Below are positions 7,270 to 64,000 of a stretch of 64,000 bases of DNA, piece after piece. Every line of letters begins with the position of its first letter. Position 1 is the stretch's first letter. A model generated the notes under the pieces. The model was not told where the DNA came from. It worked only from the letters and a program-made list of their open reading frames with translations, and searched no databases. This DNA is from Nitrospirota bacterium (lineage in GTDB: Bacteria; Nitrospirota; UBA9217), in assembly GCA_963663225.1 (NCBI GenBank), contig OY760142.1, positions 352,001 through 416,000 of the forward strand, in the 5' to 3' direction. The translations under genes and the position numbers were made by a program.

Positions 7270-7989
7270 TCAATTTCCTCCCGGTATTTTCATGTCATAC
7301 CTGGAATGACAGCCATTGCAATATGCATATGACGCTTTGTGAGCATGATGGCAAACAACACAATCTATCTCCCCCAAATGGGAATTATGCGGATTCCTGT
7401 TCGGCTGCTTTACAGATTTTGTCCGGGCCGCAATATCCGCATACGATCCATGGCAGGCGCTGCATCGTTCATTTTCAACCGTATCTCCTTTTACAGGAAA
7501 TACAGACCCATGGCAAGCAACGCACCCCACATTTTGTTTCGCGTGAATTGCATCAAGGTTCCGAGATTCCACCCAGGACACGGCTGCCTGTTGTGCAAGC
7601 GCCATATCTTCCTTAAGCGGCTTTCCCCATGATATCGTGGAACCGATCAGGCCAAAACTTGTTCCCGGTTTATACTGATGACACACGGTACAATCAACCG
7701 GTGGAGTGCCGGCAATATGTTTCGCATGCATTTTCGTAAAATATGCGCTCGCCACGGGACCGCCGGATTTCGATGGATCATGGCATTTCAGGCAAGCGCT
7801 GATGCCTGAGACGGAGACGGAAGGGTGTTTTTCAGGAAGAATTACGGACAACGTTGTATGACAGGTTTTGCACGTCCCGGCGCTTTTCGCTTTCGTTGCA
7901 GTGGATTTATCGGCGGCATACACCCCAGAGGCAAGCAAACCGAGCAAAAGGGCGATACATGCTGTTCTTGTCTTTCTCATGGGAAACAA
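7270..7989 (-). CDS. Periplasmic heptaheme cytochrome c
   Basis: Seven CxxCH motifs (CKTCH, CLKCH, CTVCH, CVACH, CSACH, CVVCH, CNGCH); Sec signal ending VYA. Confidence 0.9.
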   Translation of the reverse strand: MFPMRKTRTACIALLLGLLASGVYAADKSTATKAKSAGTCKTCHTTLSVILPEKHPSVSVSGISACLKCHDPSKSGGPVASAYFTKMHAKHIAGTPPVDCTVCHQYKPGTSFGLIGSTISWGKPLKEDMALAQQAAVSWVESRNLDAIHAKQNVGCVACHGSVFPVKGDTVENERCSACHGSYADIAARTKSVKQPNRNPHNSHLGEIDCVVCHHAHKASYAYCNGCHSRYDMKIPGGN

Positions 7990-8027
7990 GGCCTCCTTTC
8001 AATCGTCTTGTTGGTATGCGGACATTG

Positions 8028-8060
8028 AAAAGGCCCGGCGTGCAATTACAGCCGGGCCTT
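8028..8060 (-). terminator. Hairpin plus short U-tract between the flavoprotein and cytochrome genes
   Basis: AAGGCCCGGC-N11-GCCGGGCCTT followed by TT on the minus strand. Confidence 0.55.
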
Positions 8061-8074
8061 GCTCTGCTGCGTCG

Positions 8075-9664
8075 TCAAACTTTCTCTTTTGCTGCATTCA
8101 TGCCTGCTATGCGGCCGAACACCACTGCGTCGGGAGTGGCATTGGCCCCCAGCCGGTTATTGCCATGCACACCGCCGGTCACCTCGCCTGCAGCATACAG
8201 CCGCGGGATCGGGTCTCCCCATATGTCAATGACCTGGGCGGAAGGATTAATTCTGAGCCCGCCCATGCAGTGGTGGACCGAAGGCCACTGGGCAACGCTG
8301 TAATATGGCCCCTTTTCTATTGCCGTCATTACCGGAGTGTACGGTTTATTAAACTCAGGGTCTTTGCCTGCCTTCAGATACTGGTTATGCTTCCCAATTG
8401 TCTCTTCGAGAGCAACCGCCGGCACACCCATCTGCTTAGCAAGCTCGGCTAGAGAGGCCGCCTTCCAGACACGGCCCGCCGCAATCCCGCCATTAACCTC
8501 TTCCTGGGTGGTCACCTTCGGTATCATTTCTTCCGTGAACACACAGAAAGCGCGTTTCATGCCCGTATTGATTTCCGCCCGCGCAACAACATCTCGCCGC
8601 TCCAGTTCGCTCACAAACCGCTTCCCGAGCGGCGTAACAAAAACACCGCCGTAGCTCGGCATACGCGAAGGATACAGCGCATATTTATCGAGAGTGCCGC
8701 TGTCAGGGTCCGCCGTGGGATATAGCTGAATGAAACTGAGTTGAAGCGCGTCAGCGCCGATCGCCTGTGCGTACCGGATCACTTCTCCGGTCGCACCCGG
8801 CTGATTTGTACAGTTGTATGCGTCCGTGATATTGGGGTTGAACATCTGCCGCATCTTCACATCGCGCCCGAAACCTCCCGTGGTGAGCACCAGGGCTTTT
8901 TTTATTTTTATGTTCTTGGCGCCCCGGGGTGTTTCAACTTCAACGCCGAGCACCGGGCCTGCCGGGTCTTTGCGCCAGATCCAGCTTACTTTTGTGTTGA
9001 GACGGATCTTTTTGACACCGTTTCGGTCCGCGATCTTTTTGATCGCGTCAACGTAGCCTCGTCCCGTTCCGTCGATGCTGATATGGTCCCGGTATGCGGA
9101 ATGTCCGCCTATGCGGGCCAACACATTTTTCAGTTTGAGACCGCCTTCATCGACCATCCAGTCAAGCGCAGCCGGAGCGTTGTTTACCAGCACCCGCACT
9201 AATTCCGGAATATTGTAGTAATCGCCGCCTTTCAGCGTGTCCTGATAGTGAAGTTCAGCGCTGTCCTCGCCCAGTTTCAGTTTTTGGCGGAGTTGCTGAT
9301 TGTCAGTCCAGGCGTTGTACCCGCCGCCGTTAATCGTAGAGTTGCCGCCGGAAATAGGCATCTTCTCGAGAATGACGGTGTTGCTGCCCCGTGCCGCCGC
9401 TTCCGCAGCCGCGGCCAAACCGGCAAATCCTGAACCGACAATAACAACGTCTGTTTCCTCGTCCCATTTCTTGGGAAGCATGCGGACGGTCGCGGCTTCC
9501 GCATCTCCCCGAAAAACACCCAGCGACAAAGCCGGCACTGCTGCAAGCGCTCCGACTCCTCCCGCAGCCTTGAGAAAACTTCGACGGCTCAGAGAACCGT
9601 CCCCGGATTTTGCCTTTGCTGCAGATTTGTTTGCTGTGGTCTTGGATGAGTCGTCCTTTTGCAT
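8075..9664 (-). CDS. Tat-exported FAD-dependent reductase (flavocytochrome c flavin subunit; fumarate/urocanate/methacrylate reductase superfamily)
   Basis: SRRSFLK twin-Arg, VGSGFAG FAD site, ELERRD, HHCMGG and GGVHGNNRLGANA. Confidence 0.92.
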   Translation of the reverse strand: MQKDDSSKTTANKSAAKAKSGDGSLSRRSFLKAAGGVGALAAVPALSLGVFRGDAEAATVRMLPKKWDEETDVVIVGSGFAGLAAAAEAAARGSNTVILEKMPISGGNSTINGGGYNAWTDNQQLRQKLKLGEDSAELHYQDTLKGGDYYNIPELVRVLVNNAPAALDWMVDEGGLKLKNVLARIGGHSAYRDHISIDGTGRGYVDAIKKIADRNGVKKIRLNTKVSWIWRKDPAGPVLGVEVETPRGAKNIKIKKALVLTTGGFGRDVKMRQMFNPNITDAYNCTNQPGATGEVIRYAQAIGADALQLSFIQLYPTADPDSGTLDKYALYPSRMPSYGGVFVTPLGKRFVSELERRDVVARAEINTGMKRAFCVFTEEMIPKVTTQEEVNGGIAAGRVWKAASLAELAKQMGVPAVALEETIGKHNQYLKAGKDPEFNKPYTPVMTAIEKGPYYSVAQWPSVHHCMGGLRINPSAQVIDIWGDPIPRLYAAGEVTGGVHGNNRLGANATPDAVVFGRIAGMNAAKEKV

Positions 9665-49897: not shown

Positions 49898-52210
49898 TTA
49901 TCGCGAGGTTTCTTTATTACTATCATGACGGTATTGCGCTCCCGAATCCGGAGAATTCAGGTGCACGCCGACGGCGATGGCCATCGGCAGAACTCCAAAA
50001 AGTATGAAAATAAGGTCCGCAGGCATGCGGAGCCATTCAAGCACTTGCATAAACCCCGTATGCAAGAATTCAGGGCTTCTTGCATGCCAGTAACCGTTTT
50101 TCAGAACGTCCACAAACTGCAGCACGCCGCCGGGAAACAGATTCGTCATCACCATCAGGGCCAATCCGCCGTTAAGGCCCCAGAAAGAGATGCGGACGTA
50201 CCGCTCCAGTTTTCCCCATTCGGCATTGCTTGATGTCTGGCGGAGAGCAAAAACCAGCAATGCCATGGCCAGCATGCCAAAAACCCCCATCAAAGCAGCA
50301 TGACCATGGTTCGGCGTCAGGATGGTGCCCACTTCGAAGTAACTCACAATGGGCAGATTGATGAGAAAACCGAATATTCCTGCACCGATAAAGTTCCAGA
50401 CTCCGACAGCGATCAAAAAGTAAAAGGTCCATTTATGTGGAATGACTATTTCTTCCTCGCACAGGCCGCACTTTGAGCGCGTCAACTTGACGAAATCCCA
50501 GGCGTCAAGCGTGAGCAGCGTAAGCGGCACGACTTCCATTGCCGAGAACACCGCGGCAAGAGCCATGTTGATATTCGATTGCCCTGTCCAGTACCAGTGA
50601 TGCCCCGTGCCGATGATGCCGCTCCCGAGATAGAGAATGGCATCGAGATACACGACACGCGCCGCCGTCTGATGTGAAACGATGCCCAGAAGATAAAATA
50701 TGACGGCCACCATTACCGTCGCGAACACCTCGAAAAATCCCTCGACCCAGAGATGGATTATCCAGAACCGCCAGGTGTCCACCACGGAAAAATGCGTTGT
50801 GCTCGTGAAGAACATCGCCGGCATGTAAAACAGGGGAATTGCAAACGCCGCGTAGAGAAAGAGCAAAGAAATCTCTCTCCGCTCAGTGTCCCGGAGCGCT
50901 GGTGAAATGCTCCTGTAAAGCAGCAGGAACCAGACCACAAAACCGACTGCCAGCAAAATCTGCCAGGCGCGGCCGAGATCAAGATATTCCCACCCCTGAT
51001 GTCCGAACCAGAACCAGAACGTGCCGAGGAGCTGGTTGATTCCGAGAATTTCTCCCAGCATGCTCCCCGCAACCACAACCACCAGGGCGCCGAACAGAAA
51101 ATTGACTCCCCATCGCTGGCCCAAAGGCTCTTTACCGCCCAGGGCCGGTGCAAGGAACAGTCCGCCGGCGATGTACGCCGTCGCTATCCAGAAGATCGCG
51201 GCCTGGAGATGCCAGGTGCGGAGAATATTGCTGGGGAGAAGCGTGGACAGATCAATACCAAAGAAACTTCCGGGATCTACCCGATAATGAGCAGTCGCGC
51301 CACCGACAAGCGTCTGGAACAAAAAAAGCAGCATGACGACGCCGAAATATTTTACAGTTGCCTTTTGTCCCGGCAAGACAGCCCCTCCGGGGATCATCTG
51401 CGGATGAATATGACCGCCTTTTTTCTTCCATCCGAGAAAATCAAATTTTCCGAATGCAAAAAGTACGGCGGCTGTCGCGGCAAGCAGCGCAATGAGACTC
51501 AGGGCGCTCCAGAGAACTGCGTCGACGCTCGGTGAATTGCCGACAGCGGGTTCATAGGGGAAATTGTTTGTATACGAATATAGTTTGCCGGGGCGGTTTG
51601 CCGCGGATGCCCAGGCGGTCCAGGCAAAAAACGCCGTGAGCTGGCGAAGTTCGACGGGGTCGGTTATGTATTTTGCGGGTAAACCGGCACTCGCGACAGG
51701 CTGTGAAAAATACGCGGTCCACGCGGAGAGCTGATCGTGGTAGGAATCGGATTCAATATCCGTAAACAGCAGCATTCCGGACTGAGGATCATATCTGTTT
51801 TGCTTCAGCAGCTGCTGCACTTCCGCGGCGACGACCTCCTGATCCATCACGGAAGAGTATTGCGAAAGTATAGTGGATCGTTTTTGTGCAATTACTTTCC
51901 CAGCATGCGCGGCCAGCGAATGCAGATACTCCGCTGAAAAATCCGGTCCAAGATAGGCGCCATGTCCCCAGATTGTCCCGTTTTCCATCAGTCCATACTT
52001 GAGGAATACCTGTTGGCCTGCCATGATGTCTTCTCTGGTAAAAACAGATTGGCCAGTAGCGCGTATGACTTTTTCCGGGACAGGCGGAGCGTCTTCACCG
52101 ACTTTTGTTGCAAGCCAGATCAAGACTGAAAAACACACAATCAACACCAGAATAAGAGAATTTTTCCACCACGACGAGAGTGGTTCTTCTGCGCCCGCAT
52201 GTTCATTCAT
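49898..52210 (-). CDS. norB: Quinol-dependent nitric oxide reductase (qNor)
   Basis: WGHGAYLGPDFSA, RTWHLQ, HLWVEGFFEVF, GTGHHWYW and HGHAALMG. Confidence 0.95.
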   Translation of the reverse strand: MNEHAGAEEPLSSWWKNSLILVLIVCFSVLIWLATKVGEDAPPVPEKVIRATGQSVFTREDIMAGQQVFLKYGLMENGTIWGHGAYLGPDFSAEYLHSLAAHAGKVIAQKRSTILSQYSSVMDQEVVAAEVQQLLKQNRYDPQSGMLLFTDIESDSYHDQLSAWTAYFSQPVASAGLPAKYITDPVELRQLTAFFAWTAWASAANRPGKLYSYTNNFPYEPAVGNSPSVDAVLWSALSLIALLAATAAVLFAFGKFDFLGWKKKGGHIHPQMIPGGAVLPGQKATVKYFGVVMLLFLFQTLVGGATAHYRVDPGSFFGIDLSTLLPSNILRTWHLQAAIFWIATAYIAGGLFLAPALGGKEPLGQRWGVNFLFGALVVVVAGSMLGEILGINQLLGTFWFWFGHQGWEYLDLGRAWQILLAVGFVVWFLLLYRSISPALRDTERREISLLFLYAAFAIPLFYMPAMFFTSTTHFSVVDTWRFWIIHLWVEGFFEVFATVMVAVIFYLLGIVSHQTAARVVYLDAILYLGSGIIGTGHHWYWTGQSNINMALAAVFSAMEVVPLTLLTLDAWDFVKLTRSKCGLCEEEIVIPHKWTFYFLIAVGVWNFIGAGIFGFLINLPIVSYFEVGTILTPNHGHAALMGVFGMLAMALLVFALRQTSSNAEWGKLERYVRISFWGLNGGLALMVMTNLFPGGVLQFVDVLKNGYWHARSPEFLHTGFMQVLEWLRMPADLIFILFGVLPMAIAVGVHLNSPDSGAQYRHDSNKETSR

Positions 52211-52267
52211 GACCGTGACCCTTTAGTAAATTTTCCTTCTGATGGAAGGAGCGGTGAGATTACACGA

Positions 52268-52726
52268 TTATTTCCCGACGATCTTTAACCAGTTGAAATC
52301 CGCTTTCCTGATATTGCCGGGAATATCCTTGCTCCATTTTTCATACGCCGCTTTGCTGCAGTTCAGATAAAGCTTGCCGTTTACGATCTTCCACACCTCC
52401 GGATCGGTTTTGGCCTTTCGTCCCTCCGACATGGCCCAGGCGCAGTAACCATCGTACTGCGGGGCGTATGCCTCCGGTGCAGCCGCGAACGCAATCCTGT
52501 TTTCTTGTGTTGAAAAAAGCCATGTCATGTCGTGCCATTGAAAGGTGAATGTTTCATTGCCCTTTACTGCCTGGCCCGATTTAAAATAGGCAACGGTGTC
52601 ATATCCCTGTATGGCCATGTCATCTGCCGACGACTTCCCGATAGCAATATTACCCGCCCCGGTCAGCAAAATGAACGCGGTTGAAAAACTCAATAGAATC
52701 AGATTGGCTGCTTTCAAAGAGTCCAT
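52268..52726 (-). CDS. Exported YHS-domain protein (Cys form)
   Basis: AIQGYDTVAYF, P..YAPQYDGYCAWAM and IVNGKLYLN. Confidence 0.9.
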   Translation of the reverse strand: MDSLKAANLILLSFSTAFILLTGAGNIAIGKSSADDMAIQGYDTVAYFKSGQAVKGNETFTFQWHDMTWLFSTQENRIAFAAAPEAYAPQYDGYCAWAMSEGRKAKTDPEVWKIVNGKLYLNCSKAAYEKWSKDIPGNIRKADFNWLKIVGK

Positions 52727-52919
52727 ATCGCGCTGCTCCTTTTGTTGCAGGATTTAACAGGGTTTGTAAATTTTTGTTTTAAGCTTATTATAGAACAAAA
52801 TGGAAAATAAAAGACATCGGCAAGGTCAAATGATTTGATTGCGGGTAAACACAGGCATGATAAAATTTCCACCCATCCGAGCGCCGCACTGAATAAAAAA
52901 CGGCGCCCGGATCCGGCAG

Positions 52920-54125
52920 CTATTTCAGTTCGGTTTTAAACATCTTTCTGGCCGCGGCCAGCCGATCATCGAGATCAGGCCCCTCCAGTTCAGCGGAAAC
53001 CTTCTGAAGGAAATCAGGAATGTTTACGTTCTGCGGGCACTTCTCCAGGCACGAACCGCACGCGCTGCACTCTGATGCGAATCCCGCCTCTCCGTTGCTC
53101 AACATGCCGCTCGCCGAAATAGTATAAAGAAATTTCGCTTCTTCCACGTTGCCGAACATATGCATTTTATTGTACAGGTCAAAGCACTTTGGAATCTGAA
53201 CGCCTGATGGACAGGGCATGCAATATCCGCAGCCTGTACATCCTATCGGCATCAACTCAAGATATCTTCGGCTTACGCGGTCTACCAGCGCCAACTCTTC
53301 TTTGGACAGGGAGTTTGGATGCGCCTCATCAGCGATGGCCAGATTTTGCTTGATATGAGCCTCCTCATTCATACCGGAGAGAACCACGGTCACCTCCGGA
53401 TGGTTCCACACCCAGCGAAGAGCCCACTCCACAGGGGAACGTCTGATCCTGGCCAAATTCCAGATGTCCGCGATGGCGGGAGGCGGCGTGGGGAGACTGA
53501 GATTTCCTCCCCGCAAAGGTTCCATGACTATCACGCCCAGATTCCTGGCAGCGGCATATTTCAGGCCTTCGATCCCAGCCTGAAATTTCTGGTCGAGATA
53601 ATTGTACTGTATCTGACAAAAAATCCAGGGATACTCATCAACAATGCGCTTGAAATCCACCAGTTCCCCGTGAAAGGAAAAACCAGCATTAACGATGCGG
53701 CCATCTTGCTGCGCTTTCTCTAGAAAATCAAAGATGCCGTGCGTCTTCACCGTATCCCATAAAGCGCCATCAAGCGCATGAACAAGATAATAATCGATTT
53801 GATCAATTCCCAGTTTTTCCATTTGCGTGGCCAGGTAGCGGTCCATGTCGCCGCGGCCGTTAATTATCCACGAAGGCAGCTTGGTTGCCACCTTGACCCT
53901 GTCACGGTACCTGTCTTTCAAGGCTTTTCCGAGCAACGGTTCGCTTTCGCCCCCATGGTACGGCCATGCGGTATCAACGTAGTTTACACCGTTATCGATT
54001 GCGTAGCGTATCTGGTTGATCGCTCTTTCTTCATCGATCTTTCCCGCTTTCATGGGAAGCCTCATACAGCCGAATCCAAGTATGGAAAGTGAATCTCCGT
54101 TTTTCGGTACTGTTCTGTATTGCAT
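52920..54125 (-). CDS. Aldo/keto reductase with C-terminal Fe-S domain
   Basis: LGFGCMRLP, DTAWPYH, MEPLRGG, CTGCGYCMPCP and CSACGSCLEKCP. Confidence 0.93.
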   Translation of the reverse strand: MQYRTVPKNGDSLSILGFGCMRLPMKAGKIDEERAINQIRYAIDNGVNYVDTAWPYHGGESEPLLGKALKDRYRDRVKVATKLPSWIINGRGDMDRYLATQMEKLGIDQIDYYLVHALDGALWDTVKTHGIFDFLEKAQQDGRIVNAGFSFHGELVDFKRIVDEYPWIFCQIQYNYLDQKFQAGIEGLKYAAARNLGVIVMEPLRGGNLSLPTPPPAIADIWNLARIRRSPVEWALRWVWNHPEVTVVLSGMNEEAHIKQNLAIADEAHPNSLSKEELALVDRVSRRYLELMPIGCTGCGYCMPCPSGVQIPKCFDLYNKMHMFGNVEEAKFLYTISASGMLSNGEAGFASECSACGSCLEKCPQNVNIPDFLQKVSAELEGPDLDDRLAAARKMFKTELK

Positions 54126-54202
54126 GTTTTTTCTCCTGTTTTTCATGTCCTTGAGTGAAGAACAAATACGACCACCGGCATACGTAAGCTTCCAGCAGCC
54201 CG

Positions 54203-54508
54203 CTATGCTTCCGTTAGCACCTTAAGGGTGCGTTCCTCGACCAGGTCTTTTACTTTGTCCCGGTACGTCAGCATATGAGGCGCTTTAAGATGCCGGTGGA
54301 GCGCTTCGAGGCTTTCCCATTTTTCGATAATCGTAATCAGTTGCGGGTCGAGTCCTTGCGTCGGCAGCTTCGAGTCGATATCGGCTGTCGGCATGTATTC
54401 CAGACATCCCTTCTCAGCCCTGACTGTAGGCACATTGGCCTTGCATATTTCCAGAAATTCCGGTATTTTTCCGGATTTAATGCGGATTGATGCAATAACA
54501 CTGATCAT
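54203..54508 (-). CDS. Putative quinol monooxygenase (ABM family)
   Basis: AEKGCLEY and IEKWESLEAL..HL.APHM. Confidence 0.9.
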   Translation of the reverse strand: MISVIASIRIKSGKIPEFLEICKANVPTVRAEKGCLEYMPTADIDSKLPTQGLDPQLITIIEKWESLEALHRHLKAPHMLTYRDKVKDLVEERTLKVLTEA

Positions 54509-56676: not shown

Positions 56677-57750
56677 TTATTTTTCCTTCTTGAATTGCCT
56701 GCGGATGTCCTCATAATATTTTTTAGCGCAATCCGGACATAAGCCATGCGTAAATTCAGCTTCGGATTTATCGGAAATATAGGCTTCAATCTGGCTCCAA
56801 TAGCCCTTGTCATCCTTTATTTTTTTGCAGGATGCGCAGATAGGCAACAAGCCGCTTAATTGTTTCACCTTGGCAAGCGATTCCTGAAGTTCATGAACAA
56901 GCTTTTCGCGCTGTTCTTCCGCTTTTTTGCGTTCTGATATTTCTTCCAGCAACTTTGTATTTGAGTTCTCCAGTTCTGACGCGGCCAGCTGCAGGGCGGT
57001 TTCTCTTCGGTGCAGTTGTCGTCCCGCAAAAAATAAACCGGCAAGCCCTACACACCACAGCAAAAAATGGCCACTGGACAATCCGGTGATTCTGGATTGT
57101 TCAATGGCTCTCAGGGGCCCCATGGGGACGGAAGCGCTTATGCCTCCTCGAATATTTCCTTCTTGATACCCCTGGTGCGCATGACACGGAAGACATGATT
57201 TTTCGGTCACCAACGGGCGCATCAACCGCATGTATTCCCTGTTGTCGATCAAATCAAGGGAATATACTTCTTTCTTCCCCTGCGCAAATTCCACAAGAGC
57301 TTTTGTTTCCCAGCTGTCTGCCTTGTTTTCCGGACGGATAGGGTTCAAGCTCGTAATATGTCCGAGGATGCCCTGTTCCTGCTGCAGCAGTTCGTGGGAT
57401 TGGCGTGTCATGTACGCCGGATTTATCATGGTCAGCTTCCGGCCTGATTGTGTCGTAACGTCACGTTCAGGAATATCTGTTAGATAAGGATTACCCGGGG
57501 TATTCCTGGTCCGCGGTACGTATACCCCGCCATGCAGAGCGTTCCAGCGGCGGTAAATCACATCTTTCGTGAAAGCCACCCGCGCTTCGATAATCGCAAG
57601 CTCAAGAATCTGCCGCTTCAGATGGAGTATGTTCCATGCCGCAGAAAATACAATTATCACAGTCCATACCGCTGACAGTATCCAGAGATACCGTTTTATC
57701 TCAAATGAGTACTTGCTCTTCTTTTTATCAAGAAGCATCAGCCGCCTCAT
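56677..57750 (-). CDS. Heme-c sensor (DUF3365/Tll0287-like) with a Cys-rich C-terminal domain
   Basis: WNALHGGVYV, INPAYMTRQ and CLPCH; C-terminal LPICASCKKI.DDKGYW...FTHGLCPDC. Confidence 0.85.
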   Translation of the reverse strand: MRRLMLLDKKKSKYSFEIKRYLWILSAVWTVIIVFSAAWNILHLKRQILELAIIEARVAFTKDVIYRRWNALHGGVYVPRTRNTPGNPYLTDIPERDVTTQSGRKLTMINPAYMTRQSHELLQQEQGILGHITSLNPIRPENKADSWETKALVEFAQGKKEVYSLDLIDNREYMRLMRPLVTEKSCLPCHAHQGYQEGNIRGGISASVPMGPLRAIEQSRITGLSSGHFLLWCVGLAGLFFAGRQLHRRETALQLAASELENSNTKLLEEISERKKAEEQREKLVHELQESLAKVKQLSGLLPICASCKKIKDDKGYWSQIEAYISDKSEAEFTHGLCPDCAKKYYEDIRRQFKKEK

Positions 57751-58004
57751 ACTTATTGCCTATAGTTAGCATTGGGTGTTTTTTATATTGTATCATTGTG
57801 GATCAATTTTTTTTGGACTTTAATCACTGTGCAAGCTTAACATCGGCAATTCGGAATACTCAGGCAGCATACAATTCTTTCACTACCGGAGAAAAATTGG
57901 ACCGGGAATTTCACCATAGCATTCATCTCCTTTGATTGCCCTCTTTTTTTCTTTATGTTATGATGAACAAACATTGCCAGTAAGACATCGTTTGGGAGAA
58001 TTTT

Positions 58005-59837
58005 ATGATACGAGTGGTCCTCAATGTTTTGCCGCCCTCGAGAATCGACACCCCTTCTGCCGCGTTATCCACACTCAAGTCATTCCTGAAGCACCATGCG
58101 ATTGATGCAACGATTGTTTATTGGAACATTCTTCTTGACCGGCTCCTTCCCTCTTTTGAAAGAAATACCGACGAGACCCATTTCGAGTTGCTTCCATACC
58201 TCTACCTGATTTCTGATACGTATCAGGACGAAATCAAGAAGAGCAAAGCAAATGCCGTAATGAAAGCACAGCTGCCGTTCTCCGATATTCTAAACGACCG
58301 GAGCGATTTTTTTGCCCGGGCCAACGATATCCTGGAAGCTGCGTTTTCAACAGAATTTTCCCAGGAGATATATGCCGGTCAAATGCTTTTCGGAATATCC
58401 TGCAAATATGAGCAATGGATTCCCGGCATAATCCTCGCGAACCACCTAAAAAAACGTTTCCCTCATGCAAAAACCGTGATTGGAGGACTCAGAAACCGGG
58501 ACAAAGCAGAAGCTGTCATGAAAATATGCGGCGATTTCGATTTTGCCATATGGGGAGAGGGAGAATATCCGCTCTTGACGCTTTGCCGGGCTCTCGATAA
58601 AAAGACAGACGAATTTACGTCCGTCCCACGGTTGATCTTTCGCGAAAACGGTACCCTATTGTCTTCAGACACGGACGCAAGTGATTTCTCCGACATGAAC
58701 GACAGAATATTTCCTGACTATGATGATTACTTCCGCTGTCTCGAAACGTCGCGCAGAAAGAACTTTCCCGTTATCCTCCCTCTTGAATCCAGCCGGGGGT
58801 GCACCTGGAACGCGTGCAAATTCTGCGTTTACGCAGAAGGGTACAGGTGCAGAAAAAAGGATCCGGCAGTATTGGAAGAGGAAATTAGGCATCTGCTGGG
58901 CAAATACAAGACACCATATTTTGCCTTCATGGACAACGATATCGTGGCGAATGACCACGCAAGGCTCGACAAAATTCTTGACGCTCTCATTGCGATAAAA
59001 AAGGACTGCAATATTCACTTCATCGCCGAAGTGATACCTAAAAATTTTACCGCAGCAACCATGAAAAAACTTTCCCAGGCGGGACTGAACAGGATTCATT
59101 TCGGCTATGAGGCGCTTGCGAACTCGTTGCTGAAGAAGCTCGGGAAAAAGACCAACTTTTCGGACAATCTGCTTTTTGTCAAACTGGCGCTCAAATACCT
59201 AATCAAGCTTCCGTCGGCAAACATCATATGCGGCGCCGTGGGCGAGGAAGATCACGATATTCTTGAAAGCATCGACAATTTGCACTTTTTAAGGTTTTAC
59301 TTTGACAAAAACTTTTTCGTCCATAATATCATCCCCCTGCGTGTTGCCCAGCATTCCGATTTTTACAACCTGATCCCGAAGGAAACCCTCCTCAAATGGA
59401 ACGCGAATCCGATTTTCCACTTATTGCCGGATGACATGCTGGAGGGCATTGACCGTTTTTCGCTCTTCGATTTCAGCGCTGAACAGAATTTCATGTGGGA
59501 AATGTTTACAAAGATAAACACCTTTTACTATAATCACAACTATCGCTATAGCATTTCACGACAGGACGGTGCCATCATCTATAGCGAATACTTCGACGGT
59601 GATCTGGCCACACGGTTCGGGCTAAGCGACTTGGAATATCAGATCCTGCTGGAAACCAATTCAAACATACTGAATTGGAAGGAGCTAATCGGAGGTTTTC
59701 GGCTGAGGAACAATGTTCCGGTGGATGAATGTGCGGTGCGCATTGCTCTTGATCGTTTGAAAGAAAAACATTTAATCTATTTTGGCGACAACTATCATGC
59801 AATCATATCAGTCATTGACACCGATCAAACCTTTTGA
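58005..59837 (+). CDS. B12-binding radical SAM enzyme (class B), probable RiPP tailoring enzyme
   Basis: PSAALSTLKSFL...YWN, IGG...GEGE, ESSRGCTWNACKFC and FGYEAL; winged-helix-like C-terminus. Confidence 0.88.
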   Translation: MIRVVLNVLPPSRIDTPSAALSTLKSFLKHHAIDATIVYWNILLDRLLPSFERNTDETHFELLPYLYLISDTYQDEIKKSKANAVMKAQLPFSDILNDRSDFFARANDILEAAFSTEFSQEIYAGQMLFGISCKYEQWIPGIILANHLKKRFPHAKTVIGGLRNRDKAEAVMKICGDFDFAIWGEGEYPLLTLCRALDKKTDEFTSVPRLIFRENGTLLSSDTDASDFSDMNDRIFPDYDDYFRCLETSRRKNFPVILPLESSRGCTWNACKFCVYAEGYRCRKKDPAVLEEEIRHLLGKYKTPYFAFMDNDIVANDHARLDKILDALIAIKKDCNIHFIAEVIPKNFTAATMKKLSQAGLNRIHFGYEALANSLLKKLGKKTNFSDNLLFVKLALKYLIKLPSANIICGAVGEEDHDILESIDNLHFLRFYFDKNFFVHNIIPLRVAQHSDFYNLIPKETLLKWNANPIFHLLPDDMLEGIDRFSLFDFSAEQNFMWEMFTKINTFYYNHNYRYSISRQDGAIIYSEYFDGDLATRFGLSDLEYQILLETNSNILNWKELIGGFRLRNNVPVDECAVRIALDRLKEKHLIYFGDNYHAIISVIDTDQTF

Positions 59838-61180
59838 AGATAAAAATTCTTGATCGGCCTGCTAAGCACAAAGAACAGCGCCAGCACCGAATATATGATG
59901 AAAATGAAAAAAAAGATCAATAATATGTTTTTGTTCAATAGATCAATAACAATGCCGCTTCCTGCCAGAGAAAGAGGAACGAGGCCACCGTTGATTGAAT
60001 CCAGCGTTCCAAAAACCCTCCCCCGCAGCTCTTCGGGAATCACTTTTTGTTTGATCGACGTATTGATCAGACGCGAAACCGCCATGCATACGGAAATGAG
60101 TGAAAGCAGCCCGAACACAAGGTAGACATTCATGGAAAACGAAAGAAATAAAAATAATATCGCTTCAAGAATGAATACTCCGCATATCACTATATAATTT
60201 TGTTTTTCCGTTGTCTTCAGCATACCGTAGACAAAATACCCCGCGATGGAACTCATCGTCAGAATGCTTAGGAGATATCCGTAGTAGGCTTCCCCAAGCT
60301 TCATCACATCTTCAACAAGAAAAGGCAGCATTATCATCACGGCCGGAAAAAACAGATTGGACAGTGTGTAAACGATCGTCTGGTTCCTCAAGCCCTTGTT
60401 CGCCCAGATAAAAAGGAGTCCTTCTTTAACATCCTTGATAAAGCTTCGATACGAAGTTGAATATCTTTTCTCTGAGTCCTTCTGCTCCAGAGTGATGAAC
60501 AAACTCGAAAATGCCGCAGACAGATACGTTATGCCGTTCAGCAGGAACGCCAGGGTCCCTCCAAAAGCGCTGAAGAATACTCCACCCAGCGCGTTGCCGA
60601 TCATTGCCAGCAAACCGCTCGAACCCTGCAGCAAGGAATTGCCCTTCTGGATTTTGTCAATCTTGAGAATGAGCGGAATGATTGAGTAGAGGGCGGCGTT
60701 GAAAGCCGAGTCGATGATCCCCATGCACAGGGTCACGCAGAACACGATATAGAGCGTGAAGGGAAACGACGAGGAAAAATGAAATTGCGCCACTCCGATA
60801 TCGATCATCTTCAGGCCGAAAAAGTAATCCAGGCTGAATATGAACAGCAGAACCATAAGAATGCTTCGAAGAAAATAACTCCAGATGATCACTGTTTTTC
60901 TGGATGTTTTGTCGACCAGCGTCCCAGCAAATGGACCCAGCAGCACCCATGGAAGGAACGCCAGCAGTTCCACAACGCCGATGATGGTTGCCGACCCGGT
61001 TATTTTCTTCAGGTACAGGACAAGGACAACATAATAGAGCGTGCTGCCGAAAAACGCGGCGCTCTGGCCGGCGAAGAAGAGGGTGAAATTCCTGTTGAAC
61101 AATCTGTCGGAAGGCTTGGTCAAGGTATCTATACGCGTTTTTAAAGTCCGTTTCGTTATTTTTTGATGAATGTACCGCAC
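59825..61180 (-). CDS. MFS exporter (DHA3/macrolide-efflux-like)
   Basis: NRNFTLFFAGQ, GPFAGTLVDKTSRK, KEGL.FI and PEELRGRVF. Confidence 0.9.
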   Translation of the reverse strand: MRYIHQKITKRTLKTRIDTLTKPSDRLFNRNFTLFFAGQSAAFFGSTLYYVVLVLYLKKITGSATIIGVVELLAFLPWVLLGPFAGTLVDKTSRKTVIIWSYFLRSILMVLLFIFSLDYFFGLKMIDIGVAQFHFSSSFPFTLYIVFCVTLCMGIIDSAFNAALYSIIPLILKIDKIQKGNSLLQGSSGLLAMIGNALGGVFFSAFGGTLAFLLNGITYLSAAFSSLFITLEQKDSEKRYSTSYRSFIKDVKEGLLFIWANKGLRNQTIVYTLSNLFFPAVMIMLPFLVEDVMKLGEAYYGYLLSILTMSSIAGYFVYGMLKTTEKQNYIVICGVFILEAILFLFLSFSMNVYLVFGLLSLISVCMAVSRLINTSIKQKVIPEELRGRVFGTLDSINGGLVPLSLAGSGIVIDLLNKNILLIFFFIFIIYSVLALFFVLSRPIKNFYLQKV

Positions 61181-62340
61181 GTACGCGGAACATCAGCGGG
61201 ATGCGCCAGTTTGTGCTCGATGAATCGTTTCGCAATCAATTCGGTGATTTCGACGTTCTTGTCCATCAGCGCGCGCAGTGTCACCTGCGAAGTGCAGAAT
61301 GATCCCATGAAATTCGTGTCCGTCACCGGCGACAACGCGCAGTATTCTCCACAAATGGGCAGTGCGCTGCATTTTGTGCAGGTATCATTGTAGTATGAAT
61401 TCGGCGTCTCGCACAGTTCGATGGCTTTCGCCGCCCCGTCTAGGTAGGCAGGCAGGTCTTTTGCTTTCGCGATGGGGCCGGTTATACCGGCAAAAAAGCT
61501 GCATGGATAAATATATCCGTCCGCGGCTACATAGGCCGAAAAAAGACCTGCCCTGCACATCTGTGGCTTCGGCAAAGCGTGATAGTCAGAATTGCACAGA
61601 ACATTATTGTGATACAGGTGGAACTTGTTCAAAATAATGGTCTCTCGCGTGTTGAAATCAAACTGCGAAGCCAGAAATGCTGACTCGAACTCCGATTCAG
61701 CTCTGAGCATCGGCGGAATCTGCGAAGCCTGATGCCCCCTTCCCTCGCTCGAAACATAATTAACGCGGTAAAACCGAATCCCTTGTTTGTTGAAGAATTT
61801 GATGGTGGACGGCAGTATCCGCAGAGACTCCACGGTACCCACGACGAGCGCCGATATTTTAAATCCGTTTTCGGACAACGTAACGATATTGTCCCGTCTT
61901 TTTGCCGAAAGCAATCCCGGGTCAGGCAGTTCCCCGTCATAATGAATTGAAAAGTGCACGTTGTATTTTTTGAACAGATCTATGATCGCGGGTGGCAGGA
62001 TTGAGATGTTCGTCTGAACCGAGTACTCGAGTGCCTGGCCGGTTCTTTCCAGGTAGCGGTCCACCGCCTTAAAAAACGTTTCATACCATTTGACCGATAC
62101 CAGCAGGGGTTCTCCGCCGGAAAATACCACCACGCCCAGTTTTCCGTTGCTTAACTGCAGGAGCTTGATGACTGTTTCGGCTGTTTCCAGCGGATCTACT
62201 ATTTCTTCCTTTTCACCTTTCGGTGTTGCGGAAACGTTGCAGGCATCCTGGAAACAATATTCGCATGAAAGGTTACAGCCTGTAATAAGCTGGAACGTCA
62301 CACTGTTGAGATCTGCGAACGTGGGGGTAATCGTTGTCAT
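61156..62340 (-). CDS. Radical SAM/SPASM-domain peptide maturase
   Basis: CNLSCEYC, SGGEPLL and QTN; SPASM C-X12-G-X4-C...C-X2-C-X5-C-X3-C-X14-C. Confidence 0.9.
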   Translation of the reverse strand: MTTITPTFADLNSVTFQLITGCNLSCEYCFQDACNVSATPKGEKEEIVDPLETAETVIKLLQLSNGKLGVVVFSGGEPLLVSVKWYETFFKAVDRYLERTGQALEYSVQTNISILPPAIIDLFKKYNVHFSIHYDGELPDPGLLSAKRRDNIVTLSENGFKISALVVGTVESLRILPSTIKFFNKQGIRFYRVNYVSSEGRGHQASQIPPMLRAESEFESAFLASQFDFNTRETIILNKFHLYHNNVLCNSDYHALPKPQMCRAGLFSAYVAADGYIYPCSFFAGITGPIAKAKDLPAYLDGAAKAIELCETPNSYYNDTCTKCSALPICGEYCALSPVTDTNFMGSFCTSQVTLRALMDKNVEITELIAKRFIEHKLAHPADVPRTCGTFIKK

Positions 62341-62386
62341 TTGGTAATATCCTTACTTGTTTACGGAGTGGAAACGGCATGCAGAC

Positions 62387-62422
62387 CTGCTACGATATTA
62401 TCCTTTGATAACACCGCAGCAG
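62387..62422 (-). promoter_or_regulatory. Stem-loop between the precursor and maturase genes
   Basis: CTGCTGCGGTGTTATC-AAAG-GATAATATCGTAGCAG; 16-bp stem with 3 G-U pairs that form only on the minus strand. Confidence 0.65.
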
Positions 62423-62445
62423 GGGATTCTTTGAAAAACGTGGGT

Positions 62446-62643
62446 TTACTTGTTGGGGCAATAATTGGCGTAAGCACAGCAGCAGCCGCATTCCGACTCG
62501 ATTGATGCCGTCGCAGGCCTTCGCAGCGTGCTCAACATGTCGCCGAGTACTTCTTTCGATGCGTTCCACTCCGTTGCCACATACTGCTCTGCCAGATGTT
62601 CGGGTACATCATAAATGCGTCCAGACTTGTTCATCAATAACAT
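62446..62643 (-). CDS. Putative RiPP precursor peptide (65 aa, Cys-rich core)
   Basis: GAGGAGG RBS; all 5 Cys lie in the last 14 aa (CGCCCAYANYCPNK); directly upstream of the rSAM/SPASM gene. Confidence 0.82.
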   Translation of the reverse strand: MLLMNKSGRIYDVPEHLAEQYVATEWNASKEVLGDMLSTLRRPATASIESECGCCCAYANYCPNK

Positions 62644-62702
62644 ACTGTCCTCCTCATATAGTAGTCGTATGCTTGGGTTATTTTGCCGTTTTCTTCTTTT
62701 AC

Positions 62703-62731
62703 ACTCTAAAACTTTCCCGCCTTGTTGTCAA
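62703..62731 (-). promoter_or_regulatory. sigma70 promoter of the precursor operon
   Basis: TTGACA-N17-TAGAGT about 60 nt upstream of the precursor ATG. Confidence 0.7.
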
Positions 62732-62778
62732 GAAAAAATACTCCTGAACAAATAAAAAAGGTCATCATTGAACTCATT

Positions 62779-63174
62779 CTATTGCAATTCCGATATCTGA
62801 TCGACCGACAAATCGCACGTCGCAACCCATGGTGAAAAATGCATCGTACATTCCATCGATCCGGAGATTTCCACATGCCTGCCTTCCAGTTTCGATGCCT
62901 GATTCTTTGCCATGGCGGACAGGATAAGATTCAAAGCGGATACAGTCCGTTCAGATTTGGATCCTTTGGCAAACACAATCGGTTTGTCCAGTCTCAAACC
63001 ATATCCGCTTTTAGGGAGAGCCTGAGATGCGCTATTTTCATCCGTATGCACCGGTTGCATGCAATGGATGGTTCCGGTCACCCGAGTATCCTTGCGCACT
63101 TCCGAATCTGCGAATGATGGATAAGGAAAGCTCTGTATCACAACCGCAATTATTACTGCGAACAAAATGTTCAT
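62779..63174 (-). CDS. Hypothetical exported protein (possibly OB-fold/DUF4431-like)
   Basis: Signal peptide; L.LDKPI...EGRHVEISG pattern. Confidence 0.6.
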   Translation of the reverse strand: MNILFAVIIAVVIQSFPYPSFADSEVRKDTRVTGTIHCMQPVHTDENSASQALPKSGYGLRLDKPIVFAKGSKSERTVSALNLILSAMAKNQASKLEGRHVEISGSMECTMHFSPWVATCDLSVDQISELQ

Positions 63175-63261
63175 TCAGGAGTCATCCTTGCTTCCGCTTT
63201 GTTTGTACGGTCCATACTGCCGGCGCTTAAATTTTCCTTGTTCCGTGAGCATGTCGTGCAG

Positions 63262-64000
63262 CTATTTCATTTTCAACCCATCACGGTCAGGATCCGTCTT
63301 CACCGCGGACTTTGTTTTCACGTCAAGCAGTTCGGACATTTCAACAAGCCGGATGAATTCCGCCCGATAACCCTCGATGTCGGCGCCTTTGGCGGCCCGG
63401 GCCATTTTTTGTATGTCAGCATAATTCGCGTTTCCTTTATGCTCGGAGTCCCTCAACAGCATGCTCCATTCCGCCACGCTGGCCGCAAACCGAATATTTT
63501 CACTGGCATTGTCGAATGAAACTGAGACGCTTGGTATCTTGCTGACAAGCTCGGAGCTTACGTCGCTGTCCGGTTTCTTGTAGCGGAAACGGATTGTAGC
63601 AAGATCGGTGCTCGTGCGGGCGGCATCCTTGATCTGAACCGTCTGGTAAGTCAATTCCTGCTTCCCGGCCTCGTTCTCTGCCGGTACTATCTCATACAAT
63701 GCCGTAACCGAATGGCCTGATCCGAGTTCTCCGGCGTCTTTTTTGTCATCCGCGAATTCTTCAGCCCGCATCATCCGCTTCTCGTATCCGATCAACCGAT
63801 AGGACTTGACCCTGGCAGGGTTGAATTCCACCTGAAGTTTCACATCCTTTGCAATAGTCAGCAGTGTCCCGCCGAACTGTGATACCAGGACCTTTTTGGC
63901 TTCGAGCAGGTTGTCTATATACGCGTAATTACCGTTCCCTTTGTCGGCAAGTTTCTGCATTTTGGAATCCTTGTAGTTCCCCATGCCGTAGCCAAGCACG
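63262..64000 (-). CDS. YfbK-like vWA/DUF3520 protein (3' part)
   Basis: LADKGNGNYAYID, TIAKDVKLQVEFNP, DAGELGSGHSVTALYEI and YRAEFIRLV. Confidence 0.92.
   Translation of the reverse strand, partial: VLGYGMGNYKDSKMQKLADKGNGNYAYIDNLLEAKKVLVSQFGGTLLTIAKDVKLQVEFNPARVKSYRLIGYEKRMMRAEEFADDKKDAGELGSGHSVTALYEIVPAENEAGKQELTYQTVQIKDAARTSTDLATIRFRYKKPDSDVSSELVSKIPSVSVSFDNASENIRFAASVAEWSMLLRDSEHKGNANYADIQKMARAAKGADIEGYRAEFIRLVEMSELLDVKTKSAVKTDPDRDGLKMK

Follow-up and report, generated by a model that had tools for sequence, protein, structure and literature searches.

Among the known systems closest to the locus reported here are ranthipeptides and other radical non-alpha thioether peptides, namely PapB/freyrasin, NxxcB/NxxC and CrpC/CrpA, in which a precursor peptide with a Cys-rich C-terminal core is encoded right before a radical S-adenosylmethionine (SAM) enzyme with a SPASM domain. 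PapB substrates carry Cys-x3-Asp repeats. According to PMC9389541, NxxcB uses radical SAM chemistry to join Cys to Asn by a thioether at the beta-carbon of the latter, and PMC13692751 describes a SPASM enzyme, CrpC, that installs ranthionines on a substrate rich in Cys and possibly able to bind metals. We analyzed a stretch of 64,000 nucleotides from a Nitrospirota bacterium (contig OY760142.1, positions 352,001 to 416,000; hereafter the window, with positions counted from its first letter), in which an open reading frame (ORF) of 65 codons is followed on the same strand by the gene for a SPASM radical SAM enzyme. Because of its conservation and invariant gene context, the ORF very probably encodes the precursor of a peptide synthesized on the ribosome and modified after translation (RiPP) that is processed by the adjacent enzyme.

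Like the three systems above, the cassette in the window combines a Cys-rich C-terminal core with a SPASM enzyme encoded directly after the precursor. However, its core has neither the Cys-x3-Asp repeats of PapB substrates nor the N-x-x-C spacing of NxxcB, and has N-x-C and C-x-N instead. The leader is unrelated to those of ranthipeptide systems, and the cassette adds a putative B12-type radical SAM enzyme and a presumed major facilitator superfamily (MFS) exporter. CrpC belongs to TIGR04463 and has a RiPP recognition element (RRE), whereas the SPASM enzyme here opens directly with the radical SAM core, without an N-terminal RRE extension. In this respect it is like the enzymes that make triceptides, or three-residue cyclophane peptides (XyeB/XncB, OscB/GrrM, YhhB, FxsB and AmcB), which are likewise compact SPASM enzymes without an RRE, and the core shares an aromatic-x-Asn motif (positions 58-60) with triceptide systems. 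The motif occurs once here and is not repeated, however, and the invariant three Cys and Pro have no counterpart in triceptide cores.

Anaerobic sulfatase-maturating enzymes (anSMEs) have the same domain plan, again with no RRE, and provide the closest solved fold (template-modeling score, TM, 0.61-0.70 over ~390 columns; full-length sequence alignment, residues 20-334). anSME acts on the beta-carbon of Cys, and the sulfatase motif is C/S-x-P/A-x-R. On the other hand, the identity is 16-17%, the sulfatase motif is absent from the core, and there is no sulfatase gene nearby.

The precursor gene and its family

The precursor gene and the sites that belong to it are as follows.

62446..62643, minus strand: precursor ORF, ATG to TAA, 65 codons, encoding a 65-amino-acid (aa) peptide
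62446..62448, minus strand: TAA stop codon of the precursor gene
62491..62643, minus strand: leader, precursor residues 1-51, delimited from an alignment of 38 sequences
62449..62490, minus strand: core, residues 52-65, CGCCCAYANYCPNK, delimited from a position table of 53 unique sequences
62649..62655, minus strand: Shine-Dalgarno sequence GAGGAGG, 5 nt 5' of the ATG, read from the sequence
62703..62731, minus strand: promoter-like TTGACA, 17-nt spacer and TAGAGT, ~60 nt upstream of the ATG (consensus scan, 10/12 matches)

The promoter-like site is a candidate, being a match to a consensus pattern only. A preliminary description of this DNA had quoted the 65-residue translation, which is exact at 62446..62643 on the minus strand, and its account of the composition also stands: residues 1-51 are free of Cys, residues 52-65 hold five Cys (C52, C54, C55, C56 and C62), Tyr58 and Tyr61 are in a YxxY spacing, Asn60 and Asn64 are present, and the ORF contains no Gly-Gly and no in-frame stop.

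Besides the precursor itself, 37 clusters of homologues with 57-77% identity (E 3.5e-29 to 1.3e-12) were obtained by searching 5.8 billion proteins. The sequences of 35 clusters are 65-67 aa long, and the remaining two are a 106-aa form, which probably has a mis-called start, and a 50-aa fragment. Six distant members (P0039, P0041, P0042 and P0044-P0046) were added by a profile search of 1.84 billion representatives. At the DNA level, a scan of one genome per species over 185,579 species gave 16 loci, and a metagenome scan with a distant SPASM-enzyme subgroup gave L019, the one true relative among the matches listed; with the window, 18 loci were compared. A GGAGG-like Shine-Dalgarno sequence lies 5-8 nt before the ATG in 17/17 precursor genes (the window and 16 related loci). 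The median ratio of nonsynonymous to synonymous differences per site (pN/pS) was 0.30 over the 136 pairs of these 17 genes, with pS near saturation at 0.73. Between the window and its closest relative, L002, 15 of 195 nt in the precursor gene differ, and all 15 differences are synonymous. The gene is therefore real, as its homologues, the low pN/pS and the Shine-Dalgarno sequence in all 17 genes show. Note that several metagenome runs contain small portions of the region only, and no habitat conclusion was drawn from them.

The peptide matched no NCBIfam model at E≤0.01, Pfam returned only noise (E 0.085), and a look-up in the ESM Atlas gave no usable match. This lack of a Pfam or NCBIfam family, together with the fact that the precursor is known here from its gene alone, speaks for a reading in which no modified peptide is made: the ORF would either have arisen by chance or encode a small, Cys-rich protein that binds metal in unmodified form and whose gene merely neighbors radical SAM genes. 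A chance ORF was rejected on purifying selection, the conserved ribosome-binding site and the 43 homologues. As for an unmodified protein, the SPASM radical SAM gene lies directly downstream of the precursor gene on the same strand in 18/18 loci, which come from several bacterial classes and differ in their surrounding genes, and the SPASM-enzyme clade (57 clusters at E≤1e-10) matches the peptide family in its small size. We hence regard the whole of this reading as hardly credible. The account of the ORF as a leader-plus-core precursor for a radical SAM enzyme, which the preliminary description had given, is strongly backed by conservation and the invariant gene context.

The precursor is bipartite, with a conserved leader, a variable junction and a conserved core. 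The N-terminal segment of the leader is strongly conserved as MLL[MI]NK[SG]G[RK][IVL]YDVPE and is joined by a DMLSTLR segment, after which comes a linker that varies in length and sequence. N5, G8, Y11, D12, P14, E31 and L37 are invariant in the 38-sequence alignment, and the distant members retain the N-terminal M-L-[LV]-[MI]-x-x-x-G-x-[IV]-[YH]-D-V-P. The leader profile also matched, through its positions 23-49, repeated segments of five large proteins (P0043 and P0047-P0050), which were judged to be helical-repeat noise; the four scanned with Pfam are HEAT-/TPR-repeat NTPases, the 3631-aa P0049 having been left out of that scan.

The core follows the family motif [C/x]-G-C-C-[N/C]-x-Ar-x-N-[Y/W]-C-P-N-x. 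Its positions were tabulated from 53 unique full-length sequences, none of which was dropped, in a register fixed by Asn at position 60 and Tyr/Trp at position 61.

C54, C55, N60 and P63: 53/53 each
Position 61: Y in 51, W in 2
C62: 51/53
N64: 48/53, the rest being P, P, E, S and Q
G53: 48/53
Position 58: aromatic in 51/53 (Y 46, F 3, W 1, H 1), L in 1, V in 1
Position 57: aliphatic in 51/53 (A, I, V or L), Q in 1, G in 1
Position 59: small (A, S, P or T)

At position 56, 30 of the 53 sequences have N and 21 have C, and C52 tracks C56: both are present in 21 sequences, C52 alone in one, and neither in 31. This split may reflect a single clade, hence carrying no independent statistical signal. 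Exactly one residue follows position 64 in 51/53 sequences. The preliminary description had taken CGCCC-A-YANY-C as the core and had made its reading depend on conservation of the ORF and of the Cys/Tyr positions. The ORF is conserved and the positions do not vary at random, as the rows for C54, C55, N60, P63, position 61, C62 and N64 show. As to the motif itself, only the three Cys at 54, 55 and 62 proved to be family-wide, whereas C52 and C56 belong to one subtype only and Y58 is replaced by other residues, though it is aromatic in 51/53.

The SPASM enzyme and the possible chemistry of the core

The enzyme next to the precursor is encoded as follows.

61156..62340, minus strand: radical SAM/SPASM peptide maturase candidate, 394 aa (Pfam Radical_SAM, NCBIfam SPASM domain)

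It passed the SPASM domain model TIGR04085 (33.7 bits versus a cut-off of 27) as well as Pfam Radical_SAM and Fer4_12, and no NCBIfam equivalog, subfamily or exception model reached its cut-off. The best equivalog match was PapB (NF047865; 66 bits versus 340), and further scores, each given with its cut-off, were 60.5/349.45 for anSME (TIGR03942), 59/300 for TIGR04083, 56/375 for CbpB and 55/453 for QhpD. Models of cyclophane synthases gave 29.1/450 for XyeB (TIGR04496), 44.7/310 for GrrM/OscB (TIGR04261), 52.8/445 for YhhB (NF041707), 34.4/370 for FxsB (TIGR04269) and 51.6/425 for AmcB (NF041718), and those of sactipeptide and SCIFF maturases (e.g., CcpM, CefB, RumMC and not_ScfB) gave 29.7-38.6 bits versus cut-offs of 500-855. 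Since the enzyme is far below the cut-offs of all characterized families, homology leaves its chemistry unfixed. The 57 clusters of its clade include the window's protein, 50 others at ≥60% identity and six at 37-43%, and no source gives a specific name for any of them.

Twelve Cys residues are invariant in 17 orthologues, namely C22/C26/C29, C34, C262, C280, C321, C324, C330, C334, C349 and C388, so that the CxxxCxxC motif (C22/C26/C29) and the full seven-Cys SPASM motif are invariant in all 17 sequences. Two of the twelve are outside the canonical motifs: C34 lies five residues past CxxxCxxC, and C388 lies in an invariant C-terminal P-x-D-x-P-x-x-C-G tail. In the alignment with anSME (HMMER), C262, C280, C321, C324 and C330 pair with anSME Cys residues, whereas no conserved Cys stands opposite the first Cys of the anSME 'SSC...GTC' pair; the Cys closest to it, C249, is present in 13/17 sequences. 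In CteB, which forms thioethers, auxiliary cluster I has a free site. By analogy, and because that anSME Cys lacks a conserved partner, auxiliary cluster I of the SPASM enzyme here could likewise have an iron site that is free or has other ligands; C34 and C388 might supply the missing ligand.

An AlphaFold2 (AF2) model of the enzyme (mean predicted local distance difference test, pLDDT, 75.5; predicted TM, pTM, 0.80) is closest in fold to anSMEcpe, then to TigE, SkfB, ChlB, CteB and SuiB. TigE and anSME are also the best sequence matches in the Protein Data Bank (PDB), by profile over the radical SAM core only for TigE and over the full length for anSME. For the cyclopropylglycine synthase TigE (PDB 8vpo), which is the best of them, E was 3.7e-10 for a single sequence, with a match spanning residues 13-333, and 9.7e-14 for the profile, whose alignment covers the radical SAM core only (positions 9-136). 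A Gly-Tyr-Trp motif that ligates auxiliary cluster I defines cyclopropyl synthases, according to PMC10878394. No such motif was seen in the alignment of the SPASM enzymes, where the segment before C280 is D-G-x-[IVL]-[YF]-P-C, and a TigE-type cyclopropyl synthase was rejected. A predicted complex of the SPASM enzyme with the precursor scored 0.02 against a mark of 0.32, which carries no weight either way on binding.

As the main cross-link we tentatively prefer a thioether, at somewhat less than even odds, because Cys and Asn dominate the conservation of the core, C-x-N pairs occur in it, and NxxcB and CrpC offer precedents. Specifically, conservation in the core is highest at three Cys and two or three Asn. 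The C-x-N spacing is present as C54-x-N56 (in N-type sequences only) and again as C62-P-N64, and N60-x-C62 is invariant. That the top NCBIfam score of the enzyme is to a ranthipeptide maturase, PapB, also favors a thioether, as would a CteB-like free iron site on auxiliary cluster I. The preferred chemistry would then be at least one radical thioether bridge from C54, C55 or C62 to side-chain or alpha carbons of nearby residues, for which C54-x-N56, C62-x-N64 and N60-x-C62 are the obvious candidates.

The same RiPP system could instead make a triceptide-like C-C cyclophane from the aromatic residue at position 58 to the beta-carbon of Asn60, perhaps also involving Tyr/Trp61, and the conserved Cys residues would then be left as free thiols or disulfides that let the exported peptide bind metals, as the preliminary description had suggested, or act in redox reactions. 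According to PMC11002830, the bond made in triceptides runs from an aromatic residue i (Trp, Phe, Tyr and His serve as donors) to the beta-carbon of residue i+2, which is often Asn, and the core agrees with this pattern in having Y, F, W or H at position 58 in 51/53 sequences and Asn60 in 53/53. The XyeB and YhhB profiles, with ~370-385 positions, align from the N terminus without an RRE extension, as the SPASM enzyme does, and YhhB, AmcB and GrrM/OscB gave the higher scores (44.7-52.8 bits) among the cyclophane synthases. All of these scores are nevertheless far under the cut-offs (310-450 bits) and slightly under those of PapB and anSME, position 58 is Leu or Val in 2/53 sequences, and a cyclophane leaves three Cys that are as invariant as the aromatic-x-Asn motif unexplained unless they act after maturation. 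For such a later role of the thiols, the co-occurrence of C52 and C56 (only one sequence has a single one) is what would be expected of a disulfide or a paired metal ligand, and the exporter resembles the siderophore exporter EntS; against a metallophore, the 18 loci have no conserved importer, receptor or metal regulator. We hold a cyclophane product to be unlikely, though the main competitor. The preliminary description had offered both a thioether and a Y-x-N cyclophane, and both fit the conserved motifs, with sequence alone unable to separate them. The metallophore or detoxification role that it suggested is a weak possibility: an EntS-like MFS exporter speaks for it, but a conserved importer or regulator is absent. 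The reading that we prefer remains a thioether.

The rest of the cassette and its distribution

A B12-type radical SAM enzyme, an MFS exporter and an RNA hairpin are elements beyond those in the preliminary description. They are listed here with a second radical SAM protein that two other loci, L014 and L015, carry.

62386..62423, minus strand: RNA stem-loop between the precursor and maturase genes, perfect 17-bp stem and 4-nt loop, starting 22 nt past the precursor stop (fold z = -2.7)
59825..61180, minus strand: MFS transporter, 451 aa, EntS/'transmembrane secretion effector' type (Pfam MFS_1, MFS_3)
58005..59837, plus strand: B12-binding-type radical SAM enzyme of 610 aa, putative C-methyltransferase, its gene convergent with that of the MFS transporter
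59541..59810, plus strand: C-terminal winged-helix domain of the 610-aa enzyme, ~residues 513-602 (AF2 model)
L014:6724-7890, plus strand: alternative radical SAM protein, 388 aa
L015:3349-4545, plus strand: alternative radical SAM protein, 398 aa

Stem-loops located between the genes for precursor and maturase commonly serve to set the ratio of their transcripts. Hairpins with a related 5' arm (C-U-G-C-Y-G...) are found at the same place in 14/18 loci, and these 14 form the rows of the hairpin alignment, L007, L014, L015 and L019 being left out as they have no alignable hairpin. In the outer 11 pairs 94.8% of cells are paired, and seven pairs show compensatory changes (22 cells); the observed score was reached by 0/500 shuffles and by no slid register, figures to be read with the caution that the rows were chosen by the feature itself and that the structure was derived from the same sequences. 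A U-run follows the hairpin in some copies (L004, L016 and L017) and not in others, including that of the window. Rfam gave no match at E≤1 over 57700..63300. The hairpin is probably an attenuator or a transcript-stabilizing element.

The 610-aa enzyme matched best the B12-dependent 'RiPP maturation radical SAM C-methyltransferase' family TIGR03975 in NCBIfam, at 164.1 bits versus a cut-off of 281.85, with residues 4-427 aligned to profile positions 1-428 of 606. Its similarity extends to further B12-binding radical SAM families, and OxsB and CysS are weak PDB matches. Two features set it apart from TIGR03975: its gene is convergent with the rest of the cassette, and its C-terminal 180 residues lie outside the profile and are predicted to fold as a winged helix. 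These last 180 residues had no sequence match, and no Pfam match at E up to 10. The AF2 model of this part is confident only for its residues 83-172 (pLDDT 73-86), which form three strands, three helices and a hairpin. A structure search of the domain with VIA-align gave Z 7-9.5 for winged-helix regulators and Z 7.2 for a lasso-peptide B1 RRE (6jx3_B), and Foldseek returned TbiB1 (5v1v) at E 0.14; RREs thus rank among, and not above, the other winged-helix matches. From the model, the domain is a plausible candidate for a leader-binding, RRE-like domain.

The MFS transporter, which we presume from its family to be an exporter, scored 181 bits against TIGR00900, under the cut-off of 319.6. As called from a GTG start, its gene shares 25 nt (61156..61180) with the 3' end of the SPASM gene and 13 nt (59825..59837) with that of the convergent B12-type gene. 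As homologues align only from residues 6-24 onward, the true start may be further downstream.

PQQ and mycofactocin, whose maturases PqqE and MftC are SPASM-type radical SAM enzymes, provide a model for yet another product, in which the peptide is the scaffold of a small molecule or cofactor: a few C-terminal residues would be cross-linked, methylated and excised, and would leave through the MFS transporter. That class of transporter usually moves small molecules, and the loci contain no peptidase-domain ABC exporter. The leader is unusually conserved, the spacing between core and C terminus is fixed (a single residue past N64 in 51/53), and PqqE (6c8v) is among the fold matches of the SPASM enzyme. 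However, none of the 18 loci encodes a peptidase, oxidase or amidase for excision, the conservation spans 11-13 core residues and not two or three, and the MftC and PqqE models are absent from the best 25 of the 61 families that match the SPASM enzyme at E≤0.01. We consider a scaffold improbable, and continue with a modified peptide as the preferred product.

The MFS gene is next in 16/18 loci, L008 and L017 stopping at a contig edge after the radical SAM gene. Of the 16 loci that reach beyond the MFS gene, 14 have the convergent B12-type gene, which contig ends cut in L009 and L012. In L007 (10852-12668, minus strand) it matches over its full length, but as three pieces in different frames, which points either to sequencing errors that shift the frame or to decay of the gene. 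In L014 and L015, which lack it, an unrelated radical SAM gene lies directly upstream of the precursor gene. Only the N-terminal ~100 residues of its product match radical SAM models (MoaA-like, 40-45 bits), and the C terminus of the L014 protein has no Pfam match at E up to 10; it may be an alternative tailoring enzyme. L003 (Smithellaceae) has two tandem precursor genes, 7755-7958 and 8001-8204, both on the plus strand; the two precursors, each of the CGCCC type, diverge at core position 57 and at several places in the leader.

Clustering of all ORFs of ≥80 aa from the 18 loci revealed no further family common to the loci, and so no conserved peptidase, regulator or importer; the other multi-locus clusters whose coordinates were checked proved to be alternative-frame shadows of cassette genes. 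This agrees with the absence of a peptidase from the cluster that the preliminary description had reported, the neighbors in the window being the SPASM enzyme, the MFS transporter and the B12-type enzyme.

The loci are assigned by name to Syntrophorhabdus/Syntrophorhabdaceae (5), Smithellaceae, Syntrophus, Syntrophobacter or Syntrophobacterales (2), Desulfatitalea, Desulfobacterales, Desulfobacteraceae, unclassified delta-/proteobacteria and one 'Nitrospiraceae' metagenome-assembled genome (L002). In the phylum of the window, 1/400 other sampled genomes has the precursor gene, and this genome is of the same genus and is the same record as L002. The patchy distribution across taxa suggests horizontal transfer. 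Note that the GC content of the cassette (0.42-0.51) is not distinct from that of its flanks, and there is no compositional sign of an island.

Genes outside the cassette vary between loci, with the exception of L002, which is syntenic with the window on both sides. Upstream of the precursor are a 131-aa protein that is hydrophobic at its N terminus and matches no family (62779..63174, minus strand) and a YfbK_C-domain protein that runs past the end of the window (63262..63999, minus strand); both were placed outside the cassette because they are common to L002 only. At its other end the cassette adjoins a 357-aa protein (56677..57750, minus strand) with a Tll0287-like domain (PF11845), a coiled-coil stretch and a Cys-rich C-terminal tail (C-x2-C ... 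C-x2-C), which is kept only in the close relative L002. Farther away, 49898..54508 encodes a NorB-type nitric oxide reductase to which a cytochrome c-like domain is fused, an aldo/keto reductase fused to a 4Fe-4S dicluster domain, an ABM monooxygenase-like protein and, with a score under the Pfam cut-off, a YHS-domain protein.

The proposed pathway and its meaning

The gene is real, its family is conserved, the cassette is invariant, and its enzymes have radical SAM/SPASM and B12-type architecture. On this basis we propose that the ORF is the precursor of an uncharacterized radical SAM RiPP family, made along a pathway of which we infer all the chemical steps, the direction of transport and the biological role. 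The precursor would be transcribed from its own promoter, and the stem-loop just 3' of it probably keeps precursor mRNA above enzyme mRNA. The conserved leader of 45-50 residues would dock the peptide on the maturases, the SPASM enzyme would cross-link the C-terminal core (C-C-[N/C]-x-Ar-x-N-[Y/W]-C-P-N-x), and the convergent B12-type radical SAM enzyme would add one or more C-methyl groups. The leader would then be removed by a protease encoded elsewhere, perhaps the housekeeping protease that the preliminary description had proposed, and a product of ~1.5 kDa exported by the MFS transporter. We give this mechanism as a whole a probability of roughly 50%.

Several points weigh against it. The family is known here from genes alone, and the SPASM enzyme is far under the cut-offs of PapB (66/340), anSME (60.5/349) and the cyclophane synthases (29-53 versus 310-450), with scores to thioether-forming, cyclophane-forming and other families that are nearly tied. 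The core has no Asp/Glu acceptor of the PapB or QhpD type, and position 56 alternates between Asn and Cys, so Asn56 is no universal acceptor; the aromatic residue at 58 (51/53) followed by x-N suits a cyclophane equally well. The SPASM enzyme has no recognizable leader-binding domain, and the winged helix of the B12-type enzyme is only generically RRE-like. A Pfam B12-binding domain was not detected in the 610-aa enzyme, whose putative B12 assignment draws on sub-threshold family similarity, and the cassette encodes no protease.

Radical SAM RiPPs are a well-known kind of system. The precursor family, the enzyme clade and the cassette architecture are without a specific NCBIfam or Pfam model, the only models passed being the generic ones for radical SAM, SPASM and MFS proteins. 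We found no description of the peptide family in open-access PMC or bioRxiv text by searching for the core motif or keywords, a search whose scope excluded the supplements of large compendia (e.g., PMC10288494). By its sequences and their hosts, it appears to be an uncharacterized modified-peptide family found mainly in anaerobic syntrophic and sulfate-reducing bacteria. A bolder proposal, which we regard as speculative and quite unlikely, is that the SPASM enzymes of this isolated clade build, on the invariant vicinal Cys-Cys ... Asn-(Tyr/Trp)-Cys-Pro-Asn, a cross-link type new to science, neither a sactionine/ranthionine nor a triceptide cyclophane, and that the methylated, thiol-bearing product, exported by the EntS-like MFS transporter, is a soft-metal chelator or a thiol/disulfide electron shuttle, encoded by a cassette that is shared horizontally among syntrophic and sulfate-reducing anaerobes. 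Sequence analysis has so far given no evidence of unprecedented chemistry or of a defined biological role.

Much new enzyme chemistry comes from radical SAM RiPPs, and enzyme clades examined for the first time have often proved to make new bond types. The system described here is appealing as a target in that its four-gene cassette is compact and apparently self-contained, small enough for direct heterologous reconstitution, with a sharply defined core motif, a B12-type partner and a SPASM-enzyme clade set apart from every characterized family model. Uncultured syntrophic and sulfate-reducing anaerobes are almost its only hosts, and their peptide natural products have, to our knowledge, been little explored. 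A thiol-rich peptide, if that is what the cassette exports, could be relevant to the acquisition of metals or to redox exchange in sulfidic, metal-limited habitats.

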